The notes beneath the pieces are model-generated. The model was not told where the DNA came from, searched no databases, and worked only from the letters and a program-made list of their open reading frames with translations. Shown here piece after piece: positions 538 through 10,179 of a stretch of 10,179 bases of DNA; the stretch's first letter is position 1; each line of letters starts with the position of its first letter. Source of the stretch: Janibacter sp. GXQ6167 (GTDB lineage Bacteria; Actinomycetota; Actinomycetes; Actinomycetales; Dermatophilaceae); contig NZ_JBGFSK010000017.1 in the NCBI RefSeq assembly GCF_041365945.1, forward strand, positions 2,555 through 12,733, written 5' to 3'. Both the position numbers and the translations under genes were made by a program.

Positions 538-1123
538 TCACTCGGCCGCTACGACGGCCAATCGATCAAGGTCTCTCACCTCCATCCGATACAACAGCGC
601 CTCGTGGCGCACGACGTGCTCGTCGACACCGATCGTGGTGACCCCGTCGAACCGACCAGGATCGTCGATCAGGCGCCGCTTGCCCTCCGCGAGCACCGCA
701 GTGTTCGCGGCGCTCCAGGAAACCCCAAGACCGGCGGCGACACGGGTCACGGTGAGGTGGTCGACGACGATGCCCCGCAGCGCCCACTCCACGCCGAGGC
801 GGGAGATCTTCGCTCGTGGCGCGGCGGCGCGAGTCATGTCCCGCCGCCACGTCCGCCGGCAGTGCGCGCACCGGTAGCGGCGGACCCGGACCAGAAGCGT
901 TGTCGGCCTATGCCCGAACGGCTCATGCGCGAGTCGACGCGTCACCGTGTCCCGCGACACACCCCTCCGCCCCGCACTTCCGACACCAGGGGTCCACCTC
1001 GACCGACCGACACTCGATCATCGCCCGGTCCCGCTCGAGCAGCTGGCCGACCGCTTCGAGCCCGAGTTCATCGAGGCGGCAGAACGTGGTCAGGTCAGGG
1101 GTCGCGAAAGTAGGGTGGAGCAC
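538..1123 (-). pseudogene. ISL3-family transposase, N-terminal ~195 codons only, interrupted by at least one frameshift (near 925-960) and 3'-truncated.
   Basis: Two overlapping minus-strand ORFs (923..1123 and 538..960) together reconstruct a contiguous ISL3 transposase N-terminus across different frames. No ATG lies in frame upstream; the track's M at 1123 is a GTG. An alternative MMEVLHARHPER... start lies in another frame, which suggests further decay. Confidence 0.7.
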
Positions 1124-1202
1124 GTCGAGGTCTTTCGGGATGGCGAGCGTGAAGAACTTCCATCATCCGGGAGACCTCGACCCCTACCCGGCTGCCAACG
1201 CG

Positions 1203-1236: not shown

Positions 1237-1653
1237 GATAAGACGGGCGACGTTGCGGCTGACGAGTTCGTCGCGCATCGCGCGGGTCAGGGCGGCGGAC
1301 AGTACGGTGCGGAACTTCTGTGCGGTGCGGATTGAGTGGCCCTCGTCGAGCAGCGCGCAGGCGGCGTTCTGCACGTCGCGCACGGTGAGCTGGGTCAGGC
1401 GCTTGCTGCCGATGCGAGGAAGGATGTGCAGTCGCACGACGCCCTCGTATCCCCGTGCGGTGTTGCGTCGGTTGCGGCGCGGCACGACTGTCTCTAGCCA
1501 CTGCTGCAGATAGCCGGCGACCGTGACCTGTGAGTTCGGGGTCAGGATGCCGCGGCCCTCGTGCCGCGGCCCGCCCGGGCGCTTGCGTCGCCTTGCGACC
1601 CGCCGGATCGGCTCGAAAAGACGTTCTGTGGTATATCTATTACGAGAGGCCAT
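1204..1653 (-). pseudogene. Tyrosine recombinase / phage-type integrase, N-terminal core-binding (SAM-like) domain only. The native sequence spans ~1237..1653. The catalytic domain is missing because of the ISL3 insertion.
   Basis: Translation from ATG (RC of 1651-1653): MASRNRYTTERLFEPIRRVARRRKRPGGPRHEGRGILTPNSQVTVAGYLQQWLETVVPRRNRRNTARGYEGVVRLHILPRIGSKRLTQLTVRDVQNAACALLDEGHSIRTAQKFRTVLSAALTRAMRDELVSRNVARLI... This matches the integrase N-terminal core-binding domain pattern: YLxxWL, hydrophobic-rich helix (RLHILPRIG), and SxxTxxKxxxxLxxALxxA. The ORF then continues into the IS terminal repeat and stops. No R..HxxR..Y catalytic domain is present. Confidence 0.7.
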
Positions 1654-1714
1654 ATACAGGATGCACCTGGGCCTTGTCTGGGGGCTACCCAGATCGAGTC
1701 TGGAGGTGTACGGC

Positions 1715-2329
1715 GTGGCCGCGCGAGTCGTCGATGTGCGTTGTCCGGGATGCGGGAGCGCCTGGAGCACCAACCAGCAGTTCTGCCAGTACTGCGGTCG
1801 CCAGGTGCTGATCAGCTCGATGTCCGACCTGATCAGCCTGGAAGCGCGCGACCTCAAGAAGCACGTCCGTACCTACGAGGACGCGCTGGACGAGGGCGCC
1901 GATGATCCGAGCGTGCATGCGGCGCTCGGCATGTGCCTGCTCAAGCTGGGGCTGCGCGACAAGGCGCTGTCGCACTTCGAGGATGCGCTGCTCGATGACA
2001 TCGAGAACTCGGAACCGTACTTCTACGCCGCCGTCGCGTCGCTGGGTGGCAAGAAGCCGTTCCTGGTTCCGCTGGCTGGCATCCGCCGCGCGGAGGAGTA
2101 CCTCACGGCGGCGCTGCGGCTCGAGGAGCGCGGAATCTACGCCTACCTCTACGGGTACATCCGCTTCGACTACTACGAGCGCAAGTCGCTGAACGTCGAG
2201 CCGTCGTACCAGCACTACCTGCAGCAGGCAGTGCTTCGCGGTGTGACCGATCTGGACATCCAGACGCTGTTCGAGCTGCTGGAGATCGTCCCTTCGTCCG
2301 CTTCCATTCCGACCAGCGTTTCCGCCTGA
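1715..2329 (+). CDS. Zinc-ribbon protein with a C-terminal TPR-like, all-helical domain (204 aa from the GTG at 1715). It is possibly a YdjG-like component.
   Basis: It is the first gene of the co-directional operon. GGAGG at 1702-1706 lies 8 nt upstream of the GTG at 1715. Starting here avoids overlap with the integrase fragment on the opposite strand. The N-terminus has the ribbon CPGCG-x9-FCQYCG (1742-1800). The remainder (…ALGMCLLKLGLRDKALSHFEDALLDD…EEYLTAALRLEERGIYAYLYGYIRFDYYERKS…) is TPR-like helical. The 1523..1714 extension in the ORF track would overlap the integrase start and is RP-rich, so I reject it. Confidence 0.7.
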   Translation: MAARVVDVRCPGCGSAWSTNQQFCQYCGRQVLISSMSDLISLEARDLKKHVRTYEDALDEGADDPSVHAALGMCLLKLGLRDKALSHFEDALLDDIENSEPYFYAAVASLGGKKPFLVPLAGIRRAEEYLTAALRLEERGIYAYLYGYIRFDYYERKSLNVEPSYQHYLQQAVLRGVTDLDIQTLFELLEIVPSSASIPTSVSA

Positions 2330-2365
2330 CCCCTGTTCTAACCACCCGAGAGAGGTTCCTTCGCA

Positions 2366-3061
2366 ATGGCCATCAACTATGAGCGCAACAAGAAGTACTT
2401 CAAGCAGTCCAGCCCCAAGGCCGGCATCATCCTGATCGTGATCGGCCTGGTGCTGACGCTCGCCCTCCCCGAGGCGGGCAAGCTCGTCGGCATCCTGGGC
2501 ATCCTGGGTGGCGCGGCGCTGATCTACTTCCAGTTCGCGGGCAAGCCGAGCGACGCGGACATCGACTCGGACGCTGCTGCCGCCATCGCGGACGTGAAGA
2601 AGCGCGCGCTGGGCAAGCTCGGTCTGGACGAGGACGAGGTCAAGCTCATCGACCCGGTGATCGTTCACGGCTACTACTACAAGAACATCGCCTCGGGCGT
2701 GCAGGTCAAGCTCGGCAAGGACCGCGTCTTCCGTTCCTCGAACTACGAGGGCGTCGTGCTGTTCTTCAGCGAGCACCAGCTGCACGCGTTCAAGTTCCAG
2801 TTCTCTCTCGTCTCGCCGCAGGAGAGCCGCGAGCAGACCGACGAGTACTTCTACAAGGACGTCGTGTCGGTGGCGACGCAGTCGGAGACGTTCAAGATCA
2901 ACGACATCAAGGGCAACAGCCAGCAGGTCAACTTCGAGGAGTTCAAGCTCACCACCACGGGTGGCACCTCGATCACTTCGTCGATCCGCGACGAGGGCTC
3001 GGTCAGCCGCGTCATCTCCGGCGCGCGCAGCCTGATTCGCGAGAAGAAGATCGCGTCCTGA
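2366..3061 (+). CDS. Membrane-anchored protein (231 aa). It has an N-terminal hydrophobic hairpin (AGIILIVIGLVLTLAL…LVGILGILGGAALIYF) and a soluble ~170-aa domain. It is possibly YdjH-like.
   Basis: ATG at 2366 is preceded by GAGAGAGG (2348-2355), and it lies 36 bp after the stop of the upstream gene. The protein is unusually Lys-rich (K > R) for a high-GC host, yet it keeps high GC3 (AAG, TTC, TAC codons). Confidence 0.75.
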   Translation: MAINYERNKKYFKQSSPKAGIILIVIGLVLTLALPEAGKLVGILGILGGAALIYFQFAGKPSDADIDSDAAAAIADVKKRALGKLGLDEDEVKLIDPVIVHGYYYKNIASGVQVKLGKDRVFRSSNYEGVVLFFSEHQLHAFKFQFSLVSPQESREQTDEYFYKDVVSVATQSETFKINDIKGNSQQVNFEEFKLTTTGGTSITSSIRDEGSVSRVISGARSLIREKKIAS

Positions 3062-3079
3062 CCCCGAGTTCTCTGCGTG

Positions 3080-3112
3080 CCGGGGCCGGTCGGCAGTCGC
3101 CACCGGCTCCGG
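3080..3112 (+). promoter_or_regulatory. Intergenic stem-loop between the membrane-protein gene and the ATPase gene (11-bp stem, 11-nt loop). It may be a partial terminator/attenuator or an RNA-processing element.
   Basis: CCGGGGCCGGT (3080-3090), loop CGGCAGTCGCC, ACCGGCTCCGG (3102-3112). The arms are complementary except for one G·U pair. No U-tract follows, so it is not a classical intrinsic terminator. Confidence 0.3.
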
Positions 3113-3156
3113 CACACCAATTCCGCTGCCCGAGCGTGACGTGAGGAGTGTGCCGT

Positions 3157-5841
3157 ATGCCCGCAGGCGACGCGCCCCTGACGTTCACGCCTCTCGCGCA
3201 GGGTGAAGTAGCCGCTGCTACGGTGGTCGAGGTCGTCCGCATCCCGCACGTCTCCGTGCTGGGCGATGATCCGGCTGCCGAGCTGGTGCAGCAGTCCAAG
3301 CGGGACTTCGTCAGCCTGCTGTTCGAGGCGTACCAGTCGTACCGCGGACAGTACGAGGACGGCCCCGACCGAGCTAGCGACTGCGCTCTGGAACTGCTTT
3401 GGCAAGCACACCCCATTCAGGGCCAGCCGCACGCCGCCGACCTCACGCTATTCATCATCGTTCGCGCGATCGGCGCGAACCGGGACGACGCAGCGGCGGT
3501 TGTCAACGAGCTGCACGCTGTCGTGATCAGCGCGCTCACGCTCGGCGGCTTCGACTACGCAGATCGTCCTGCCTCCGCGATCGGCGCCCAGGCGGCGGAA
3601 CGGTCGGTTGCGCTCGTGAAGGAGGAGTGGATTGAGAACCTCGGCAACCAGATCCTGCCGAGCGCCTTCGCCTTCCACCGTATCCCCACGGGCAGCCGTG
3701 ATCTCTCACGTATCGCCAGCGCCCTAACCGAGGTGCCCGGTGCGTCCCTCTCGGTTCAGCTGATCCCGGCGACACTGGAGCCTGACGAGCGGACTGCTAT
3801 CGAGCAGCTGACGCTGGCGCTCACGACCCTCGCCAACGGTGTGACGGATCAGTCGATCGGTACCGTCAGCTTCACCGCGGCGAAGCGCCTCGCGGAGATG
3901 TACTCGTATCTGGAGGGGCACAAGGACTCGCCCCTGTTTCTGTTTAACGTCGTCGTCTCCGGGCCGAAGCTCGCCGTGCCGGTGATCGCCAACCGGGTGC
4001 TCGGTCACCTCTCCGCCGACGCCGAGGTAGGCGCGCTGGCGGCACGCTTCGTCGACGCCACAGCCCTGGTGCCACGAGGCGATGCGTCCTTCGTCGCTGC
4101 ACCGTGGCAGCTGAACGAGACGCTGCTCGACCAGACTCGTGATCCGTCGCTCTGGGCGGCGGGCCGCAATCCCGGTGAGGCATTCTACCGGCTGCCGTTC
4201 CTGCTGACGGCATTCGAGGCATCGGAGTTGTTCCGTCTGCCGATCGGCAGTGACACGGTCGGCGCCGGGCTGACGGTGAACACCACGACCCGGCACTCGC
4301 GCAACTACTCGGCCGGCGTGATCGGGAGCTCGAGCATCGAAGCCGGGCGACTCGCCGGGGCGGCCGAGGTCTCGATCGGGTTCGGGCATACCGACCTGAC
4401 CAAGCACGCTTTCGTCACGGGGACGCCCGGTTCGGGTAAGACGACGTTCACGGTCGGGCTGCTCGACCGGCTCTGGCACGAGCACGGCATCCCGTATCTG
4501 GTGATCGAGCCGGCGAAGAACGAGTACCGGGCGCTGATCGAGACGACGCCGGATCTGCAGGTGTTCACCCCGGGCAAGGATCATCTGTCTCCGCTTGTGC
4601 TGAACCCGTTCCTGCCGCCAGCGGGCGTGCGGGTGCAGAGCTACAAGTCGACCCTCAAGACGGCGTTCGCAGCCGCGGTCACGATGACGAGCCCCCTGGA
4701 CAAGATCTTCGAGGACGCCCTCTCAGCCACGTACTCGCGGTTTGGCTGGTTCGATGCCGACACAGCCGCCGATGGCCGTGAGGTGTTCTCTATCCGCGAC
4801 TTCCTGGCCGTTTTCCAGGAGACCTTCGTCCGCATCGGCTACACCGGAGACGCGGCCAACATCGGACGAGCAGGCCAGGTGCGCCTGCAGAGTCTGGTTG
4901 GCCTGTTCGACACCTACCCTTCGATCCCTGTCGAGGATCTGCTGTCGAAACCCACGGTAATCGAGCTGGCAGGGATCGAGAACAGCGACGACAAGGCCCT
5001 CTACATCGCGCTCATCCTGCTGCAGGTCCTCGCCTACGTGAACGCCAACGTCGCCGGCGACGGGAAACTCAAGCACGTCCTCCTGCTCGAAGAAGCCCAC
5101 GTCTTGCTCGACGCCGACGACGCCAGCGGACCGGGCGAAGCGGACCCCGCCGCGATTGCGAAGAAGCTGCTCAAACGCATGTTGGCCGAGATCCGCTCCT
5201 ACGGCGTCGGCATCATCGTGGCCGATCAGTCGCCACGCAAGGTCGGCTCGGACGTGGTGGCGCTCACGAACATCAAGCTCGGGTTCCGGCTGGTCGAGGC
5301 CGCAGACAAGGAGATCCTGGCCGAGAGCACCAACATGAGCGACGCGCAGCGCGAGCGGCTGGCGCGGCTCCGGCCGGGCGAGGCACTCCTGTTCTACGAC
5401 CGCCTCGAAGACCCCGAGGAGATCGCCACAGCCGACTGGCGCGCCCAGCGCGGCATCCCGACGTTCGTGTCCGATGAGGAGATCGCCCGAAAGGTCACTT
5501 ACTGGCAGCGGCACCCGGAACTGCTCATGCCATACCCGGAGAGCGCCTACATCGGGGGCTGGGACGCCTCGGTTGCCGGTGCGGGCAAGGAGATCGCCCG
5601 GCGCCTCTTCGCCGCGCACGTCCCGGCCGGCGATGTCGGCGTCAAGAGATTCGGCAGCATCTACCGGCAGCTCGATGCGTTCATCGCCGCCGAACTTCCC
5701 GCGTCGATCCCGAACACGCCGGCCCTGCGGCGAGCGGTCAAGGTCAACTTCCTGCGGCTGGTCAAGTACGAGTCGCAGATCCCACTGTCGGACGCCACGA
5801 TCCACAAGACCCTCGAAGCCGAGAGGAGCCGCACAGCATGA
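3157..5841 (+). CDS. HerA/FtsK-superfamily (DUF87 / HerA-like) P-loop ATPase, 894 aa. The ~420-aa N-terminal domain is unassigned.
   Basis: GAGGAG (3143-3148) lies 8 nt upstream of the ATG at 3157; the track's GTG at 3148 has no spacer. Walker A is GTPGSGKTT (~4420-4446), followed by YLVIEPAKNEY and LVLNPF; HerA proteins have …IFDPHGEY…INPF in the same positions. Walker B is HVLLLEEAHVLL (~5074-5100). The C-terminal motif GVGIIVADQSPRKVGSDVVALTNIKLGFRL matches the HerA 'RKYGvgl.lvtQrPsel…' region. The stop overlaps the next start (ATGA at 5838-5841). Confidence 0.85.
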   Translation: MPAGDAPLTFTPLAQGEVAAATVVEVVRIPHVSVLGDDPAAELVQQSKRDFVSLLFEAYQSYRGQYEDGPDRASDCALELLWQAHPIQGQPHAADLTLFIIVRAIGANRDDAAAVVNELHAVVISALTLGGFDYADRPASAIGAQAAERSVALVKEEWIENLGNQILPSAFAFHRIPTGSRDLSRIASALTEVPGASLSVQLIPATLEPDERTAIEQLTLALTTLANGVTDQSIGTVSFTAAKRLAEMYSYLEGHKDSPLFLFNVVVSGPKLAVPVIANRVLGHLSADAEVGALAARFVDATALVPRGDASFVAAPWQLNETLLDQTRDPSLWAAGRNPGEAFYRLPFLLTAFEASELFRLPIGSDTVGAGLTVNTTTRHSRNYSAGVIGSSSIEAGRLAGAAEVSIGFGHTDLTKHAFVTGTPGSGKTTFTVGLLDRLWHEHGIPYLVIEPAKNEYRALIETTPDLQVFTPGKDHLSPLVLNPFLPPAGVRVQSYKSTLKTAFAAAVTMTSPLDKIFEDALSATYSRFGWFDADTAADGREVFSIRDFLAVFQETFVRIGYTGDAANIGRAGQVRLQSLVGLFDTYPSIPVEDLLSKPTVIELAGIENSDDKALYIALILLQVLAYVNANVAGDGKLKHVLLLEEAHVLLDADDASGPGEADPAAIAKKLLKRMLAEIRSYGVGIIVADQSPRKVGSDVVALTNIKLGFRLVEAADKEILAESTNMSDAQRERLARLRPGEALLFYDRLEDPEEIATADWRAQRGIPTFVSDEEIARKVTYWQRHPELLMPYPESAYIGGWDASVAGAGKEIARRLFAAHVPAGDVGVKRFGSIYRQLDAFIAAELPASIPNTPALRRAVKVNFLRLVKYESQIPLSDATIHKTLEAERSRTA

Positions 5842-7019
5842 GCGACTACGGCACCGACATTGCAGACGCCCCCGTCGACACCGGCGCGGACGTCAGCGTG
5901 CCCGATACGACCGACTACGCCGACGAGCCGGTCGACCTGGCCGAGACCCCGCCCGAGTCGGAGGCGCCCGAGGCCGAGGAGGCGCCGCCCGCCGAAGACC
6001 TCTCGGAGCCCGCAGCAGATGAACTGAGCGGCACGGCGGAGACGCCGGCGGATGCGGAGGCACCCGTCGACCTGGGCGCGGCCCCGGAAACGGCCGACGC
6101 CGCCCCGGAACAGCCCCAGGACTGGCAGGAGGGCGAGGTCGTCGATCTCGGCGACGACGCTGCCCCCGACGCCCCGCAGGAGGACGAGACCGCCGAGGCG
6201 GACGATCCTGCCGGGCGCGACCTGGGTGATCCCGACCTGGCCGACAGCCCGGAGGCCGAGGCTCCCACGGATAGCGCCGGTGAGGATCTGACGACACCGA
6301 CGGACGACGAACCGGGCGCCGGTGATGCGCCGACTGACGCCGACGAGCAGGTACCTGAGGCGGCGGAGATTGAGCCCGAGGCCGCAAACGACGTGACGGA
6401 TGCCGAACCCGAGCCCAGGGTCGATGAGTTGACAGAGGCGGCCCGGGATGAGGCCCGCCCCGCCGACGAGCTGCGCGCCGAGTACTACGCCGACGTGGCT
6501 GATGTGCTGGCCGATGACACACCATCCGACGCCGAGCCGGTCGAGACGCAGGACACTCCCGGAGCAGACGCTGCCGAGGCGCCGGAGTCGAGCGATCACG
6601 CGGACGCCGCCAATGACCGCAGCAACTCCCCAGAGAACGAGGCACTGACCTCGGCGCTAGCCGAGAAAGGCCTGTCGCTGGAGCCGGTCGATCGCTTCGA
6701 CTACAGCGACAACCCGGTTCTCGGCTACCGCGAGTCCGCCCCGCCCGAAGACGTCGCGTACGCCGTCAACGCCTGGAACGACGAGATCGCGCCCGGCATC
6801 GCGGCCGGCGCGACCCGTGAGGACTTCGCCGCCTACGACCAGGAGCACGGCCTCGAAGGGCAGCGGCAGCTGGCCGGCGTCTACGACTACATGCTCGGCG
6901 GCGACGCGATCAAGAGCGGCGGAGAGCGCGAGGACGGATCGCTCGACGTCACCGGCGGCAGGCACCGCCTGGAACAGGCGCGTCTGAACGGCGTCCAGTA
7001 CCTGCCCGTGAGGAAGTAG
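5838..7019 (+). CDS. Acidic, low-complexity protein (393 aa). It has a ~270-aa D/E/A/P-rich, presumably disordered N-terminal region and a ~120-aa C-terminal globular domain.
   Basis: Translationally coupled by an ATGA overlap, with GAGAGGAG at 5821-5828. The frame shows clean high-GC codon usage (GAC/GAG/GCC/CCC), while the alternative frames are Arg/Pro-rich junk. The C-terminus contains …VYDYMLGGDAIKSGGEREDGSLDVTGGRHRLEQARLNGVQYLPVRK. The GGxHRxxxAxxxG…PV stretch is reminiscent of ParB/Srx box II, but that is tentative. Confidence 0.65.
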   Translation: MSDYGTDIADAPVDTGADVSVPDTTDYADEPVDLAETPPESEAPEAEEAPPAEDLSEPAADELSGTAETPADAEAPVDLGAAPETADAAPEQPQDWQEGEVVDLGDDAAPDAPQEDETAEADDPAGRDLGDPDLADSPEAEAPTDSAGEDLTTPTDDEPGAGDAPTDADEQVPEAAEIEPEAANDVTDAEPEPRVDELTEAARDEARPADELRAEYYADVADVLADDTPSDAEPVETQDTPGADAAEAPESSDHADAANDRSNSPENEALTSALAEKGLSLEPVDRFDYSDNPVLGYRESAPPEDVAYAVNAWNDEIAPGIAAGATREDFAAYDQEHGLEGQRQLAGVYDYMLGGDAIKSGGEREDGSLDVTGGRHRLEQARLNGVQYLPVRK

Positions 7020-7056
7020 CCGACCCGGCATCCGATCCGACGAAAGCGAACACCGT

Positions 7057-8256
7057 ATGAAGATCTACGACGTCATCAAGAACGAGACCGGCCTTCTCAA
7101 CGACGGCCTGGGCTCGAAGGCCGTGCTGGCGTGGAAGTTCACCGGTGAGGACTTCAACGACAACACGCAGCTGATCGTCTCCGAATCGGAGGAGGCGATC
7201 TTCATCCGCGACGGCATCGCCGTGGCGACCTTCGGCGGCGGCCGCTACACGCTCAACAGCAACAACCACCCCTTCATCGGCAGGCTGAGGAACCTGCTCT
7301 CCGGCGGGGTGAGCGCGTTCAGCTCGCGGGTGTACTTCGTCAACATCGATCACAAGTTGGAACTGCTGTGGGGCACCGACAGCCCGATCCAGCTCCGCGA
7401 CCCGGTCTGGAGCCTGCAGACCAGCGTGCAGGCGCGCGGCTCGTACTCGATCCAGGTGACGGACTCCAAGAAGTTCCTGATCAAACTGCTCGGCACCAAC
7501 ATCCAGGTTTTCGACGAGCAGCAGCTCGCCGGCTACTTCCGCAGCGCCTTCTCGCAGCACATCCGCGGACAGATCGCCCGCTACATCCGCGACTCCGGCC
7601 AGGAGATCCTGGAGATCACCTCGGACATCGAGCTGCTGGCCGAGCAGCTGCACCCGAGGCTCGCACCGCTGCTGGATGAGTACGGCGTGAAGCTCGTCAA
7701 CTTCTACATCGCCGCGATCGACATCCCCACCGACGACCCGAACCGCCAAGTGCTGGAGAACTCGATCGCACAGAAGCAGGCCAAGCTGCAGAGCGCGCAG
7801 GGCGATAAGGCCGTCATGGGGCTGCTCGGGGAAGACTGGGCCAGGCAGCAGTCGGCCACCATCCTCACCGAGCTCGCCAAGAACCCCGGCGCGGGTGGCG
7901 TGGCTTCCGCGGGTGCCGCAGCAGGCGTTGGCCTGGCTGCGGGCAGCGTCTTCGGGGAGATGGCGACGCAGATGTTCACGCGCCCCGTCCAGCCCGCAGG
8001 CGACCCGATGGCTGGCAATGTCGGGCGCAACCGCACATCGCGCTTCTCGCCCGCAGAGCCTGCCGCGCCGGCCGCCGCCGAGACGTGTCCGGGCTGCGGC
8101 GCGAGCGTGGCGGCGGGAGCGAAGTTCTGCCCGGAGTGCGGCAACCGTCTCGCACCTCAGCAGGTGCCCTGCTCGGGTTGCGGAACCGCAATCGCGAGCA
8201 CGGCCAAGTTCTGCCCCGAATGCGGAACGCCGAACAACCAGGGAGCATCCTCATGA
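7057..8256 (+). CDS. SPFH/Band-7-family protein (COG4260 / PF13421-like, 'putative virion core protein' group) with C-terminal tandem (double) zinc ribbons, 399 aa. YdjI-like.
   Basis: The N-terminal ~250 aa match the COG4260 pattern as I recall it: MKIYDVIKNE…, GGRYTLNSNNHPFIG, YFVNIDHKLELLWGTDSPI, ARGSYSIQVTDSKKF. A Gly/Ala-rich linker follows. Then come two tandem ribbons, CPGCG-x9-FCPECG and CSGCG-x9-FCPECG (8086-8229). The stop overlaps the next start (ATGA at 8253-8256). Confidence 0.85.
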   Translation: MKIYDVIKNETGLLNDGLGSKAVLAWKFTGEDFNDNTQLIVSESEEAIFIRDGIAVATFGGGRYTLNSNNHPFIGRLRNLLSGGVSAFSSRVYFVNIDHKLELLWGTDSPIQLRDPVWSLQTSVQARGSYSIQVTDSKKFLIKLLGTNIQVFDEQQLAGYFRSAFSQHIRGQIARYIRDSGQEILEITSDIELLAEQLHPRLAPLLDEYGVKLVNFYIAAIDIPTDDPNRQVLENSIAQKQAKLQSAQGDKAVMGLLGEDWARQQSATILTELAKNPGAGGVASAGAAAGVGLAAGSVFGEMATQMFTRPVQPAGDPMAGNVGRNRTSRFSPAEPAAPAAAETCPGCGASVAAGAKFCPECGNRLAPQQVPCSGCGTAIASTAKFCPECGTPNNQGASS

Positions 8257-8930
8257 CCCGCACGATCCTGCGCGCCATCCTGTGGCTCGTCCCCATCGCC
8301 GTCTACGTCGCCATCTTCCTCATCCTCGAGGCCCCGCAGGGCGCGACGTTCTGGACGTCCGCACTGCTGCTGGCGTTCGCCTACGTCATGCTCGCCGTCA
8401 GTTTCGTCGCCGTGCCGCGCAGTCGGATAGCCGCGATCCTGGCCATGCCCCTGATCCTGGTGGCGAGCATCTACTTCACTGCCGAGCTCATCGCGGCCAG
8501 CATCTTCATCTACGTGCAGGACATTCCATACCCGTGGGTGATCATCACGCAGCTGATCCTGGCCGCGATCTTCCTCGTCGTGTTCCTCACCACCTTGTTG
8601 TCCAACGAGGCCATCGCCGCCCAGATCGAGACCCAGCACGCCGACGTCCTGGTGATCAAGAGCGCCGTCACCCGCATCACGGCCCTGGGACGTGTCGCCC
8701 ACGATCCGCGCCTGGCGAAGTCGCTGGACGGGCTGGCCGAGGAGTTCCGCTACAGCCCGACGATGCGCTCGAACCAGGTGCGCGAAGTCGACGCGCAGAT
8801 CGCCGTGCAGCTCGAGCGACTGGAGAGCCTCGTCCACATCCAAGCTTCGCAAGAGGATACCGTCGGCCAGATCGCGGCGATATCCGGGGCGCTCGCTTCA
8901 CGCAACGAGGCGATCAAGCTCCGCCAGTAG
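8253..8930 (+). CDS. Integral membrane protein (225 aa). It has 4 predicted TM helices and a ~75-aa C-terminal helical, coiled-coil-like cytoplasmic tail.
   Basis: ATG at 8253 with GGGAG at 8241-8245. It has four long hydrophobic segments (ILWLVPIAVYVAIFLIL; ALLLAFAYVMLAVSFVAV; AAILAMPLILVASIYFTAELIAASIFIYV; VIITQLILAAIFLVVFLTTLL). The track's longer ORF starting at 8085 overlaps the zinc-ribbon coding region of the upstream gene in another frame, so I reject it. Confidence 0.75.
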   Translation: MTRTILRAILWLVPIAVYVAIFLILEAPQGATFWTSALLLAFAYVMLAVSFVAVPRSRIAAILAMPLILVASIYFTAELIAASIFIYVQDIPYPWVIITQLILAAIFLVVFLTTLLSNEAIAAQIETQHADVLVIKSAVTRITALGRVAHDPRLAKSLDGLAEEFRYSPTMRSNQVREVDAQIAVQLERLESLVHIQASQEDTVGQIAAISGALASRNEAIKLRQ

Positions 8931-9226
8931 GAGGAGGTGCATAGGGCAGACCCGCGCGCAGATCCGGCCACGGCTGCGGCACCAGCTGGTCGAGCGTGAC
9001 ACCGAGCACCTGCGCGATGGCCATGATCTTGCGCAGACTCGGGTTGGCCGGAGTCTCCGGCATCGACTCGCCCTTCTCGAACTTCTGGAAGGTGTAGCGC
9101 GTGAGCCCAGCGGCGTAGGCAACCTGCTCCTGGGTGAGTCCACGGTCGATCCGGTGCCGCTGAATGCTGGCACCAAGTTCGCGCGCGTACTGGGGCCAAG
9201 GGCCATCGGGTCGTCGTTTTTGCCAT
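8914..9226 (-). pseudogene. XRE-family helix-turn-helix transcriptional regulator (~104 aa if repaired). Its reading frame is disrupted by a +1 frameshift in a T5 homopolymer (plus strand 9217-9221) immediately after the start codon.
   Basis: The minus-strand frame reads …KRRPDGPWPQYARELGASIQRHRIDRGLTQEQVAYAAGLTRYTFQKFEKGESMPETPANPSLRKIMAIAQVLGVTLDQLVPQPWPDLRAGLPYAPPPTGGA*. This is the classic XRE pattern (GLTQEQVA…G…R…ExG). There is no in-frame start, and a stop lies directly upstream. The ATG at the RC of 9224-9226 is +1 out of frame. Deleting one A from the AAAAA run restores MAKRRPDGPWPQYARELG…. The 3' end overlaps the 3' end of the convergent membrane-protein gene by ~17 bp. Confidence 0.6.
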
Positions 9227-9376
9227 CACCCCAGGCTGAGCAGGTGGCCTCCCGGAACGAACCTCCTGTATATGGCAATAGATCCGCTCGATCAGTAACC
9301 CCGCGTGGCCGTCGGCGACGATAGGCGCATGAATGAAGAAGGCCCGGGAGCCGCTCCAGCCGAGAACTCGTGGTTC

Positions 9377-9919
9377 TCAAGGCCGGGGCGAACTCCCGAG
9401 CAGGGCGTGCAGCTGATGGCTGGCTGGTGAGACGGCGCGAATGCGGGTCTCGTGGAGGGCGGGGTCGTGCGTGCGCAGGTACATCGCCCAGAACGCCGCG
9501 TCGGCATACGTTGTGTGCAGATCTGACTGCGCCCGCCAGCCGCTCGAAGCGGTGCGCCGGTAGCCGACTTCGTAAGGGCCGCCATGCAGGAGTTCCTGCA
9601 CGAGTGATGCCGGGACGTCACCGACCGGGTAGGTGCTGCCGATATCGCCCACGAGGAGCACGTCGCCGTGCAACGCCGGCCGCTGCCTTGAAGTGGTGTC
9701 CCAGAACCAGCGCAGCGACGAGGCGCGCAGGTTCATCGGGAGCCCGTTTCGGCGGTCGTCGGCGTCGAGCCACATCGTGACACCTCGGCTCTCGATGTCG
9801 ATCGGGATCACCAGATCAGCGAGCTGCTGAATGTCTGCGAACCCTGCGACCTCCCGCGTTTCGAGTTGTTGCTCGATCTGCGCCGGGATGAGAACAGCCG
9901 TGACGGTCTCACCATTCAC
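9377..9919 (-). CDS. Hypothetical protein, 180 aa, Trp-rich. It may be a small mobile-element-associated protein.
   Basis: It is the longest ORF in this region, with a balanced amino-acid composition (MNGETVTAVLIPAQIEQQLETREVAGFADIQQLADLVIPIDIESRGVTMWLDADDRRNGLPMNLRASSLRWFWDT…). The overlapping plus-strand ORF 9370..9780 is Arg/Pro-rich junk. No convincing SD sits upstream, so confidence is moderate. Confidence 0.45.
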   Translation of the reverse strand: MNGETVTAVLIPAQIEQQLETREVAGFADIQQLADLVIPIDIESRGVTMWLDADDRRNGLPMNLRASSLRWFWDTTSRQRPALHGDVLLVGDIGSTYPVGDVPASLVQELLHGGPYEVGYRRTASSGWRAQSDLHTTYADAAFWAMYLRTHDPALHETRIRAVSPASHQLHALLGSSPRP

Positions 9920-10074
9920 GACGGCTCACCCGCAGTGAGGCAGTAGTGCCCCGTAGCGTGGTGTAGCCCGCGGTGGCCGGCTCGTCGTTCGCGACGTAGG
10001 CGCGGTCACCGTGTGATCCTTCGAGAAGTCTCTTACCTCCACTCGAAAGGCATCATCACGATGACCGCTCCTCA

Positions 10075-10136
10075 TATTGTCGACAGTGAGGATGGGTTTT
10101 GGCATCCCCGGGTGGAGGTCTGACTCGATTGTCGAC
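10075..10136. promoter_or_regulatory. Two copies of a palindrome-containing motif ATTGTCGAC, 53 bp apart, upstream of the minus-strand gene ending at 9919. They are putative operator sites.
   Basis: ATTGTCGACAG at 10075-10085 (core TGTCGACA, a perfect 8-bp palindrome) and ATTGTCGACGG at 10128-10138 (core GTCGAC). The 53-bp spacing is about five helical turns. Confidence 0.25.
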
Positions 10137-10179
10137 GGGCGTCAGCGACTGCCTTTGCATGGGATTCGTCGATCTTCAG

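Follow-up and report, generated by a model that had tools for sequence, protein, structure and literature searches.

A frameshifted copy of a conserved XRE-family regulator gene convergent with an uncharacterised HerA/SPFH operon

Genes of the locus and the reading frame of the XRE gene

The window, by which we mean the whole stretch of DNA analysed here (10,179 nt, 66% G+C), carries a six-gene operon, a small XRE-family helix-turn-helix (HTH) gene that converges on it and a DUF3846-like gene upstream of the latter (Table 1). The six-gene HerA-like ATPase/SPFH/zinc-ribbon module is conserved and uncharacterised. Its ATPase, g5, has CedD as its best NCBIfam match and mad8 as its best PADLOC match, a generic HerA/mad8 ATPase assignment, and PADLOC run over the window genes matched the operon to no known defence system. 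We rejected identification of the locus with such a system on the grounds that PADLOC returned only the generic HerA/mad8 match for g5 and a generic HTH match for the XRE gene. DNA similarity to two relatives, a contig of the P0001 clade described below (L001) and Microbacterium sp. HA-8 (NZ_CP162025.1, L010), begins at position 1577 and ends at 9939, and the flanks at 1-1576 and 9940-10179, including ORFs 158-877 and 947-1513, are unrelated to either. In the place of these two ORFs the relatives carry a second XRE paralogue of 93 aa upstream of the operon (L068, 1833-2114; L010, 19627-19851).

Table 1. Positions of the genes and sequence features of the window
Feature	Position	Strand	Remark
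Second motif copy, GCCATATACAGGATG	1649..1663	+	66 nt upstream of probable GTG start 1715
Six-gene operon, g3-g8	1715..8930	+	convergent with XRE gene
g3, Zn-ribbon/TPR	1715 to 2329	+	
g4, 231 aa	2366-3061	+	
g5, HerA/FtsK-like ATPase, 897 aa	3148-5841	+	
g6, variable 393-aa protein	5838-7019	+	
g7, SPFH/Band_7 with double zinc ribbon	7057-8256	+	
g8, 225-aa membrane protein	8253-8930	+	
Out-of-frame ORF, 158 aa, product of the ATG as written	8750..9226	-	overlaps g8 antisense
Overlap of the 3' ends of g8 and the XRE gene, 17 bp	8914..8930	.	conserved in relatives
XRE-family HTH gene, 313 nt as written	8914..9226	-	disrupted by +1 insertion
A5 run (T5 on the plus strand), codons 3-4	9217..9221	-	one A more than orthologues (AAG CGA or AAA CGA)
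ATG start codon	9224..9226	-	orthologous to family M1 (M-A-K-R-R-P)
15-nt motif, GCCATATACAGGAGG	9262..9276	-	50 nt upstream of XRE ATG; candidate operator/promoter element
g10, DUF3846-like	9377..9919	-	upstream of XRE gene, co-directional

Read directly from the window, the minus strand runs CTGGGGTG and then ATG GCA AAA ACG ACG ACC CGA TGG CCC, in which the five consecutive A residues form the only A/T run of at least five nucleotides in the 10,179 nt. Deletion of a single A from this run yields a 312-nt XRE gene of 103 aa that ends at 8914. As written, the HTH frame contains a TGA at 9228-9226, a GTG at 9229-9227 lies in frame with the ATG at 9226-9224, and a scan of the HTH frame for ATG, GTG, TTG and CTG found none before the ATG at 9063, which is Met55 of the repaired protein. 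The ORF listing likewise contains only a 49-aa ORF (8914..9063) in the HTH frame, and the 158-aa out-of-frame ORF gave no family match. The ORF listing and the frame scan agree with the first-pass annotation, which had described the ATG as +1 out of frame and the HTH frame as lacking a start. It had also proposed that a complete XRE HTH protein is encoded once one base is removed from the A5/T5 run, and the repaired frame indeed passes the Pfam cut-offs for HTH_31 (38 bits; cut-off 27) and HTH_3 (34.1 bits; cut-off 23). The overlap that it had noted with the last operon gene was found to be tail-to-tail, and relatives keep it too. Because the lesion is a matter of reading frame, chance is not at issue. 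As it stands in the window, the XRE gene is a conserved regulator gene put out of frame, and it lacks the intact ORF, encoding the domain from a start codon, that is expected of an HTH regulator. A further single-base frameshift in a small regulator gene matters little in itself, and annotation should flag the gene as frameshifted.

The repaired protein and its family

A search with the repaired protein (MAKRRPDGPWPQYARELGASIQRHRIDRGLTQEQVAYAAGLTRYTFQKFEKGESMPETPANPSLRKIMAIAQVLGVTLDQLVPQPWPDLRAGLPYAPPPTGGA, 103 aa) returned 105 homologues, mostly of 92-105 aa, from Microbacterium, other Microbacteriaceae, Aeromicrobium and Bifidobacterium. The N-termini of the homologues (n = 105) align with the repaired start: position 1 is M in 82/105 and V in 12/105, position 6 is P in 83/105, position 10 is W in 94/105 and position 18 is G in 97/105. 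Comparison with intact orthologues identifies the extra A as a base inserted relative to the family. The nearest homologue, P0001, is an intact, syntenic protein of 103 aa that is 94% identical to the repaired protein, and it is found on eleven metagenome contigs that share the gene order of the window, with DUF3846 genes followed by the XRE gene and then, in convergent orientation, the genes for the 225-aa protein, the SPFH protein and the HerA-like protein.

The AlphaFold (AF2) model of P0001 has a five-helix, lambda-repressor-like XRE fold (mean pLDDT 86), with helices at residues 10-27, 32-39, 43-51, 64-74 and 78-81, the first of which has pLDDT above 90. The repaired product thus resembles XRE/Cro-C1 regulators in its HTH_3/HTH_31 matches, its five-helix fold and its size of ~100 aa, and also in the conserved motif upstream of its own gene, as expected of an autoregulator. 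Beyond the generic HTH domain, the family is distinguished by M-A-K-R-R-P-x-G-x-W leading in at the N-terminus, by M-P-G-T-P-A-N-P in a loop that follows helix 3 and by P-W-P-D-L-R as its tail. As a subfamily of XRE proteins in Microbacteriaceae and Bifidobacterium it is strongly conserved and uncharacterised, and its fixed upstream motif should be easy to test as an operator.

Foldseek placed C.BclI, CapH-N, C.AhdI, ClgR and SinR among the top matches to the model. The best structural matches are the controller (C) proteins of restriction-modification systems (C.BclI, C.AhdI, C.Esp1396I) and the N-terminal domain of CapH, with E values of 4e-6 to 1e-5, TM-scores of 0.8-0.9 on the target and sequence identities of 25-32%. 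PADLOC likewise gave the XRE gene weak profile matches to capH and Control_protein, both of a generic HTH kind. C proteins are small regulators that recognise boxes ahead of their own genes and govern the expression of a neighbouring accessory module. The upstream motif here is not a known C-box, and neither restriction, methylase nor CapP protease/CBASS genes were found among all window genes with Pfam, NCBIfam or PADLOC. A phage origin was considered and rejected, since IMG/VR viral contigs contain no relatives of the family and the only match in a phage genome collection was one distant Pseudomonas phage repressor. The family appears to travel with accessory or defence-type islands. On the Microbacterium plasmids NZ_CP064874.1 (L048) and NZ_CP012698.1 (L049), members of the family with 55-60% identity sit between a tyrosine-recombinase cluster and a helicase-related/DUF1156 cluster, beside type II restriction-modification genes.

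Origin of the extra base

At the site of the A run, the P0001 clade reads ATG GCA AAG CGA CGA, the MRS-1/Ga0073899 clade and HA-8 read ATG GCG AAG CGA CGA, and two Microbacterium loci (L014, L013) read ATG or GTG followed by GCA AAA CGA CGA. The three closest lineages have AAG, hence A3; A5 is absent from ~40 related contigs, where the run is A3 or A4. The orthologues are intact, so the idea of a pseudogene fixed across the family, which had been raised at the outset, is not borne out. The repaired gene has a dN/dS of 0.06-0.08 against three close lineages, and the changes on the window lineage comprise 11 synonymous substitutions and a single non-synonymous one, N66K, at a column that is N in 94/105 members and K in one. 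The window copy has also kept its upstream motif, its Shine-Dalgarno region and its start codon intact. The low dN/dS and the 11:1 excess of synonymous changes imply that the gene was selected until very recently; judged from these substitutions, it is a gene that has been under purifying selection for nearly all its history. Selection until recently in turn implies that the insertion happened very recently or else reflects an error of assembly.

The most likely of the two is a real mutation, with an assembly error a close second. The artefact reading, in which the true sequence is A4 (ATG GCA AAA CGA CGA) and the XRE gene is intact and functional, is a serious possibility, if short of a probable one. 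It would require only a single-base change in the one A/T run of five or more in the window, and it would restore the state seen in Microbacterium L013 and L014. The A5 allele is moreover a singleton among the ~40 related contigs, and the remainder of the gene looks functional, with its low dN/dS, its retained motif, Shine-Dalgarno region and start codon and, apart from N66K, no further degenerative change. A run of five is, however, short for systematic homopolymer error, and the N66K substitution, at a column so uniformly N, hints at relaxed constraint and may be read as a weak sign of a real lesion. The conserved genes of the window other than the XRE gene, which span 7.8 kb and include five G/C runs of 5, are all full length relative to their relatives; the absence of any other frame-breaking indel in these 7.8 kb argues against an assembly with homopolymer errors throughout. 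Neither g7, g8 nor the 158-aa ORF gave a match in exact-product look-ups, the closest g8 homologue being 92% identical, and a degenerate pattern scan across the site recovered one JGI contig among metagenome contigs, intact and without A5, and nothing among viral contigs.

Real disruptions of the family are common, which also speaks against an artefact. In HA-8, whose syntenic orthologue is ~90% identical at the DNA level, the gene is interrupted after codon 11 (at codon 12) by ~2.67 kb (L010, 7327-9999) containing two IS transposase genes, one with DUF772 and DDE_Tnp_1 domains and the other with DUF4096 and DDE_Tnp_1 domains. The junctions of this insert read CTAG on both sides, where relatives read CCAG, and the HA-8 copy has in addition acquired Q47R at a column that is Q in 104/105 members. 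Further lesions are found in Bifidobacterium primatium (L030, 10001-10300; TAG after codon 14), Labedella phragmitis (L040, 9980-10180; 5' truncation and an internal TAG) and Pseudoclavibacter (L046, 10001-10240; ATA in place of ATG and a replaced C-terminus). The independent IS disruption in HA-8 implies that loss of the regulator is tolerated. The window copy carries a disabling lesion relative to intact orthologues, which is the mark of a pseudogene, and it resembles the frameshift pseudogenes and IS-disrupted regulators of accessory islands in having one such lesion while the rest of the gene is intact. This is the best-fitting category if the base is real, and nothing substantial sets the window copy apart from it.

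A designed phase switch or recoding is unlikely. The first-pass annotation had raised reversible phase variation, in which slipped-strand mispairing in the A run, as a contingency tract, would turn the regulator, and with it the operon, on and off. The position directly after the start codon is classic for such a tract, deletion of one base restores the frame exactly, and the same gene has been lost independently in HA-8. The phylum also provides a permissive background, in that Actinobacteria lack MutS/MutL and their NucS-based repair leaves indels uncorrected (PMC7015689), and homopolymer phase variation is known in M. tuberculosis (PMC10334774). The glpK 7C and espA-upstream 7A tracts of M. 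tuberculosis resemble the A run in being sites of single-base homopolymer indels near the 5' end of a gene, in the same phylum and with mismatch repair that does not fix indels (PMC10334774, PMC7015689). These tracts are, however, 7 nt or more in length, and phase-variable homopolymers were defined in the M. tuberculosis studies as runs of 7 nt or longer (PMC10334774), whereas the A run here has 5 nt; in M. smegmatis, reporter runs of 4-5 G gained or lost a base only at very low rates (PMC7015689). Nor is the tract conserved, the three closest lineages having AAG, and no A4/A5 length polymorphism was seen in the ~40 related contigs. The other disruptions of the family lie at other sites and arose by IS insertion, nonsense mutation or truncation, none of which is reversible, which argues that the A run is not a recurrent hot spot. 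The phase-variable switch is thus not supported, and we consider it very unlikely.

Expression of the HTH protein from the sequence as written, whether by +1 ribosomal frameshifting, by transcriptional slippage on A AAA A or by a non-canonical start in the HTH frame, would be more improbable still, to the point of being barely credible. The AAA A sequence would allow tRNA-Lys to re-pair in the +1 frame, and a few bases upstream there is a G-rich stretch that resembles a Shine-Dalgarno sequence, but no orthologue needs a shift, the 105 homologues start in frame, and the next zero-frame codon is ACG, which is neither a stop nor rare. Known slippage tracts exceed A AAA A in length, and in high-G+C genomes ACG is a common codon. 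Programmed +1 frameshifting of the prfB type and transcriptional slippage were rejected on the grounds that neither is conserved in any orthologue and that ACG is not a stop codon. An unconventional start that would leave the gene intact, which had been named as a way out, fared no better: with no ATG, GTG, TTG or CTG before Met55, the only candidates are ATT at codon 21 and ATC at codon 26, which have no Shine-Dalgarno sequence, lie inside helix 1 and fall downstream of the conserved W10 as well as of L17 and G18, which are also conserved. Initiation at any of the three alternatives, Met55 included, would disrupt helix 1, and alternative starts were rejected accordingly.

We therefore favour an ordinary null allele, in which a very recent, strain-specific single-base insertion has removed the regulator, and give this reading about an even chance. 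The insertion would have lengthened a run of A3-4 to A5 in codons 3-4, most likely by replication slippage, as a recent event specific to the strain and not a programmed one. Ribosomes initiating at the ATG at 9226 would then read the 158-aa nonsense frame, and no HTH protein would be made. Loss of one base from the run could bring the gene back, although only at ordinary mutation rates.

The upstream motif and the convergent operon

The 15-nt motif GCCATATACAGGAGG occurs at the same position in 25/38 orthologous loci, from Microbacterium to Bifidobacterium, and more distant family members have a GCCATA-N8-GCCATA direct repeat in its place. In HA-8 the motif carries a C-to-T change (GTCATATAC). 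A second copy heads the operon, upstream of GTG 1715, which is preceded by GGAGG and is the probable start of the first operon gene. The chance expectation for this copy is 0.01, and two matches were obtained in 0/200 shuffles. It is kept in every lineage that has operon and XRE gene linked (L001, L002, L010, L068, L070, L071) and is degenerate or missing in the three lineages that have the operon without the XRE gene (L062, L063/65, L066/67). This link between regulator and motif is correlative, and the loci that show the linkage are at the same time those most closely related to one another.

A motif shared by the XRE gene and the head of the operon suggests that the regulator controls the operon, and these sequences fit a small autoregulating XRE protein that may also control the convergent operon. 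Acting as an autoregulator, the intact protein of the relatives would bind GCCATATACAGGAGG ahead of its own gene, and it would bind the second copy at the head of the HerA/SPFH operon as well. Alternatively, the motif could be a promoter element that is read by another factor. Scans of 8700-9700 found neither sigma-70-type promoters nor intrinsic terminators, and the only Rfam match in the window, to mir-36_2 at 1122-1184 (+), was sub-threshold (27.8 bits against a gathering score of 46; E 0.025) and is almost certainly a chance match in bacterial high-G+C sequence. The earlier suggestion that the state of the regulator may affect the neighbouring operon thus gains indirect support from the motif copy at the operon head. 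Under autoregulation with operon control, loss of the regulator would be expected to deregulate the operon, most likely by derepression, a direction that we take from the behaviour of the family.

The association itself is restricted. The XRE gene and the operon are linked only in the window's own clade, and clustering of ORFs within 7 kb on each side of 38 loci revealed no conserved partner of the XRE gene beyond close relatives. In other genomes the operon lies among transposase, integrase and TnsA-like genes. The motif nevertheless ties the regulator to an uncharacterised six-gene operon, which is a modest lead, and if the frameshift is real, the window strain and HA-8 would be natural regulator knockouts whose comparison with intact relatives could reveal the function of the operon.

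A bolder extension of the null-allele reading is that loss of the regulator is adaptive, the frameshift in the window and the IS insertions in HA-8 having independently derepressed the HerA/SPFH/zinc-ribbon module via GCCATATACAGGAGG, with reversion of the A run serving as a crude, low-frequency switch. We consider this unlikely; if true, it would describe a switch for an accessory system, possibly one of defence or DNA translocation.

Two smaller observations concern the sequence around the XRE start and the gene upstream of it. In the P0001 clade, a 9-codon upstream ORF (ATG AGA ... GGA TGA; L001, 3550-3583) follows the AGGAGG of the motif, and its stop codon overlaps the XRE start. The ATG of this small ORF is replaced by CCG in the window, and the ORF, being without a start codon there, was rejected as a conserved feature. 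The HA-8 homologue of g10 (L010, 6601-7169) aligns in two frames, covering residues 1-50 and 51-180; to judge from this alignment it looks frameshifted, and the window copy is intact.
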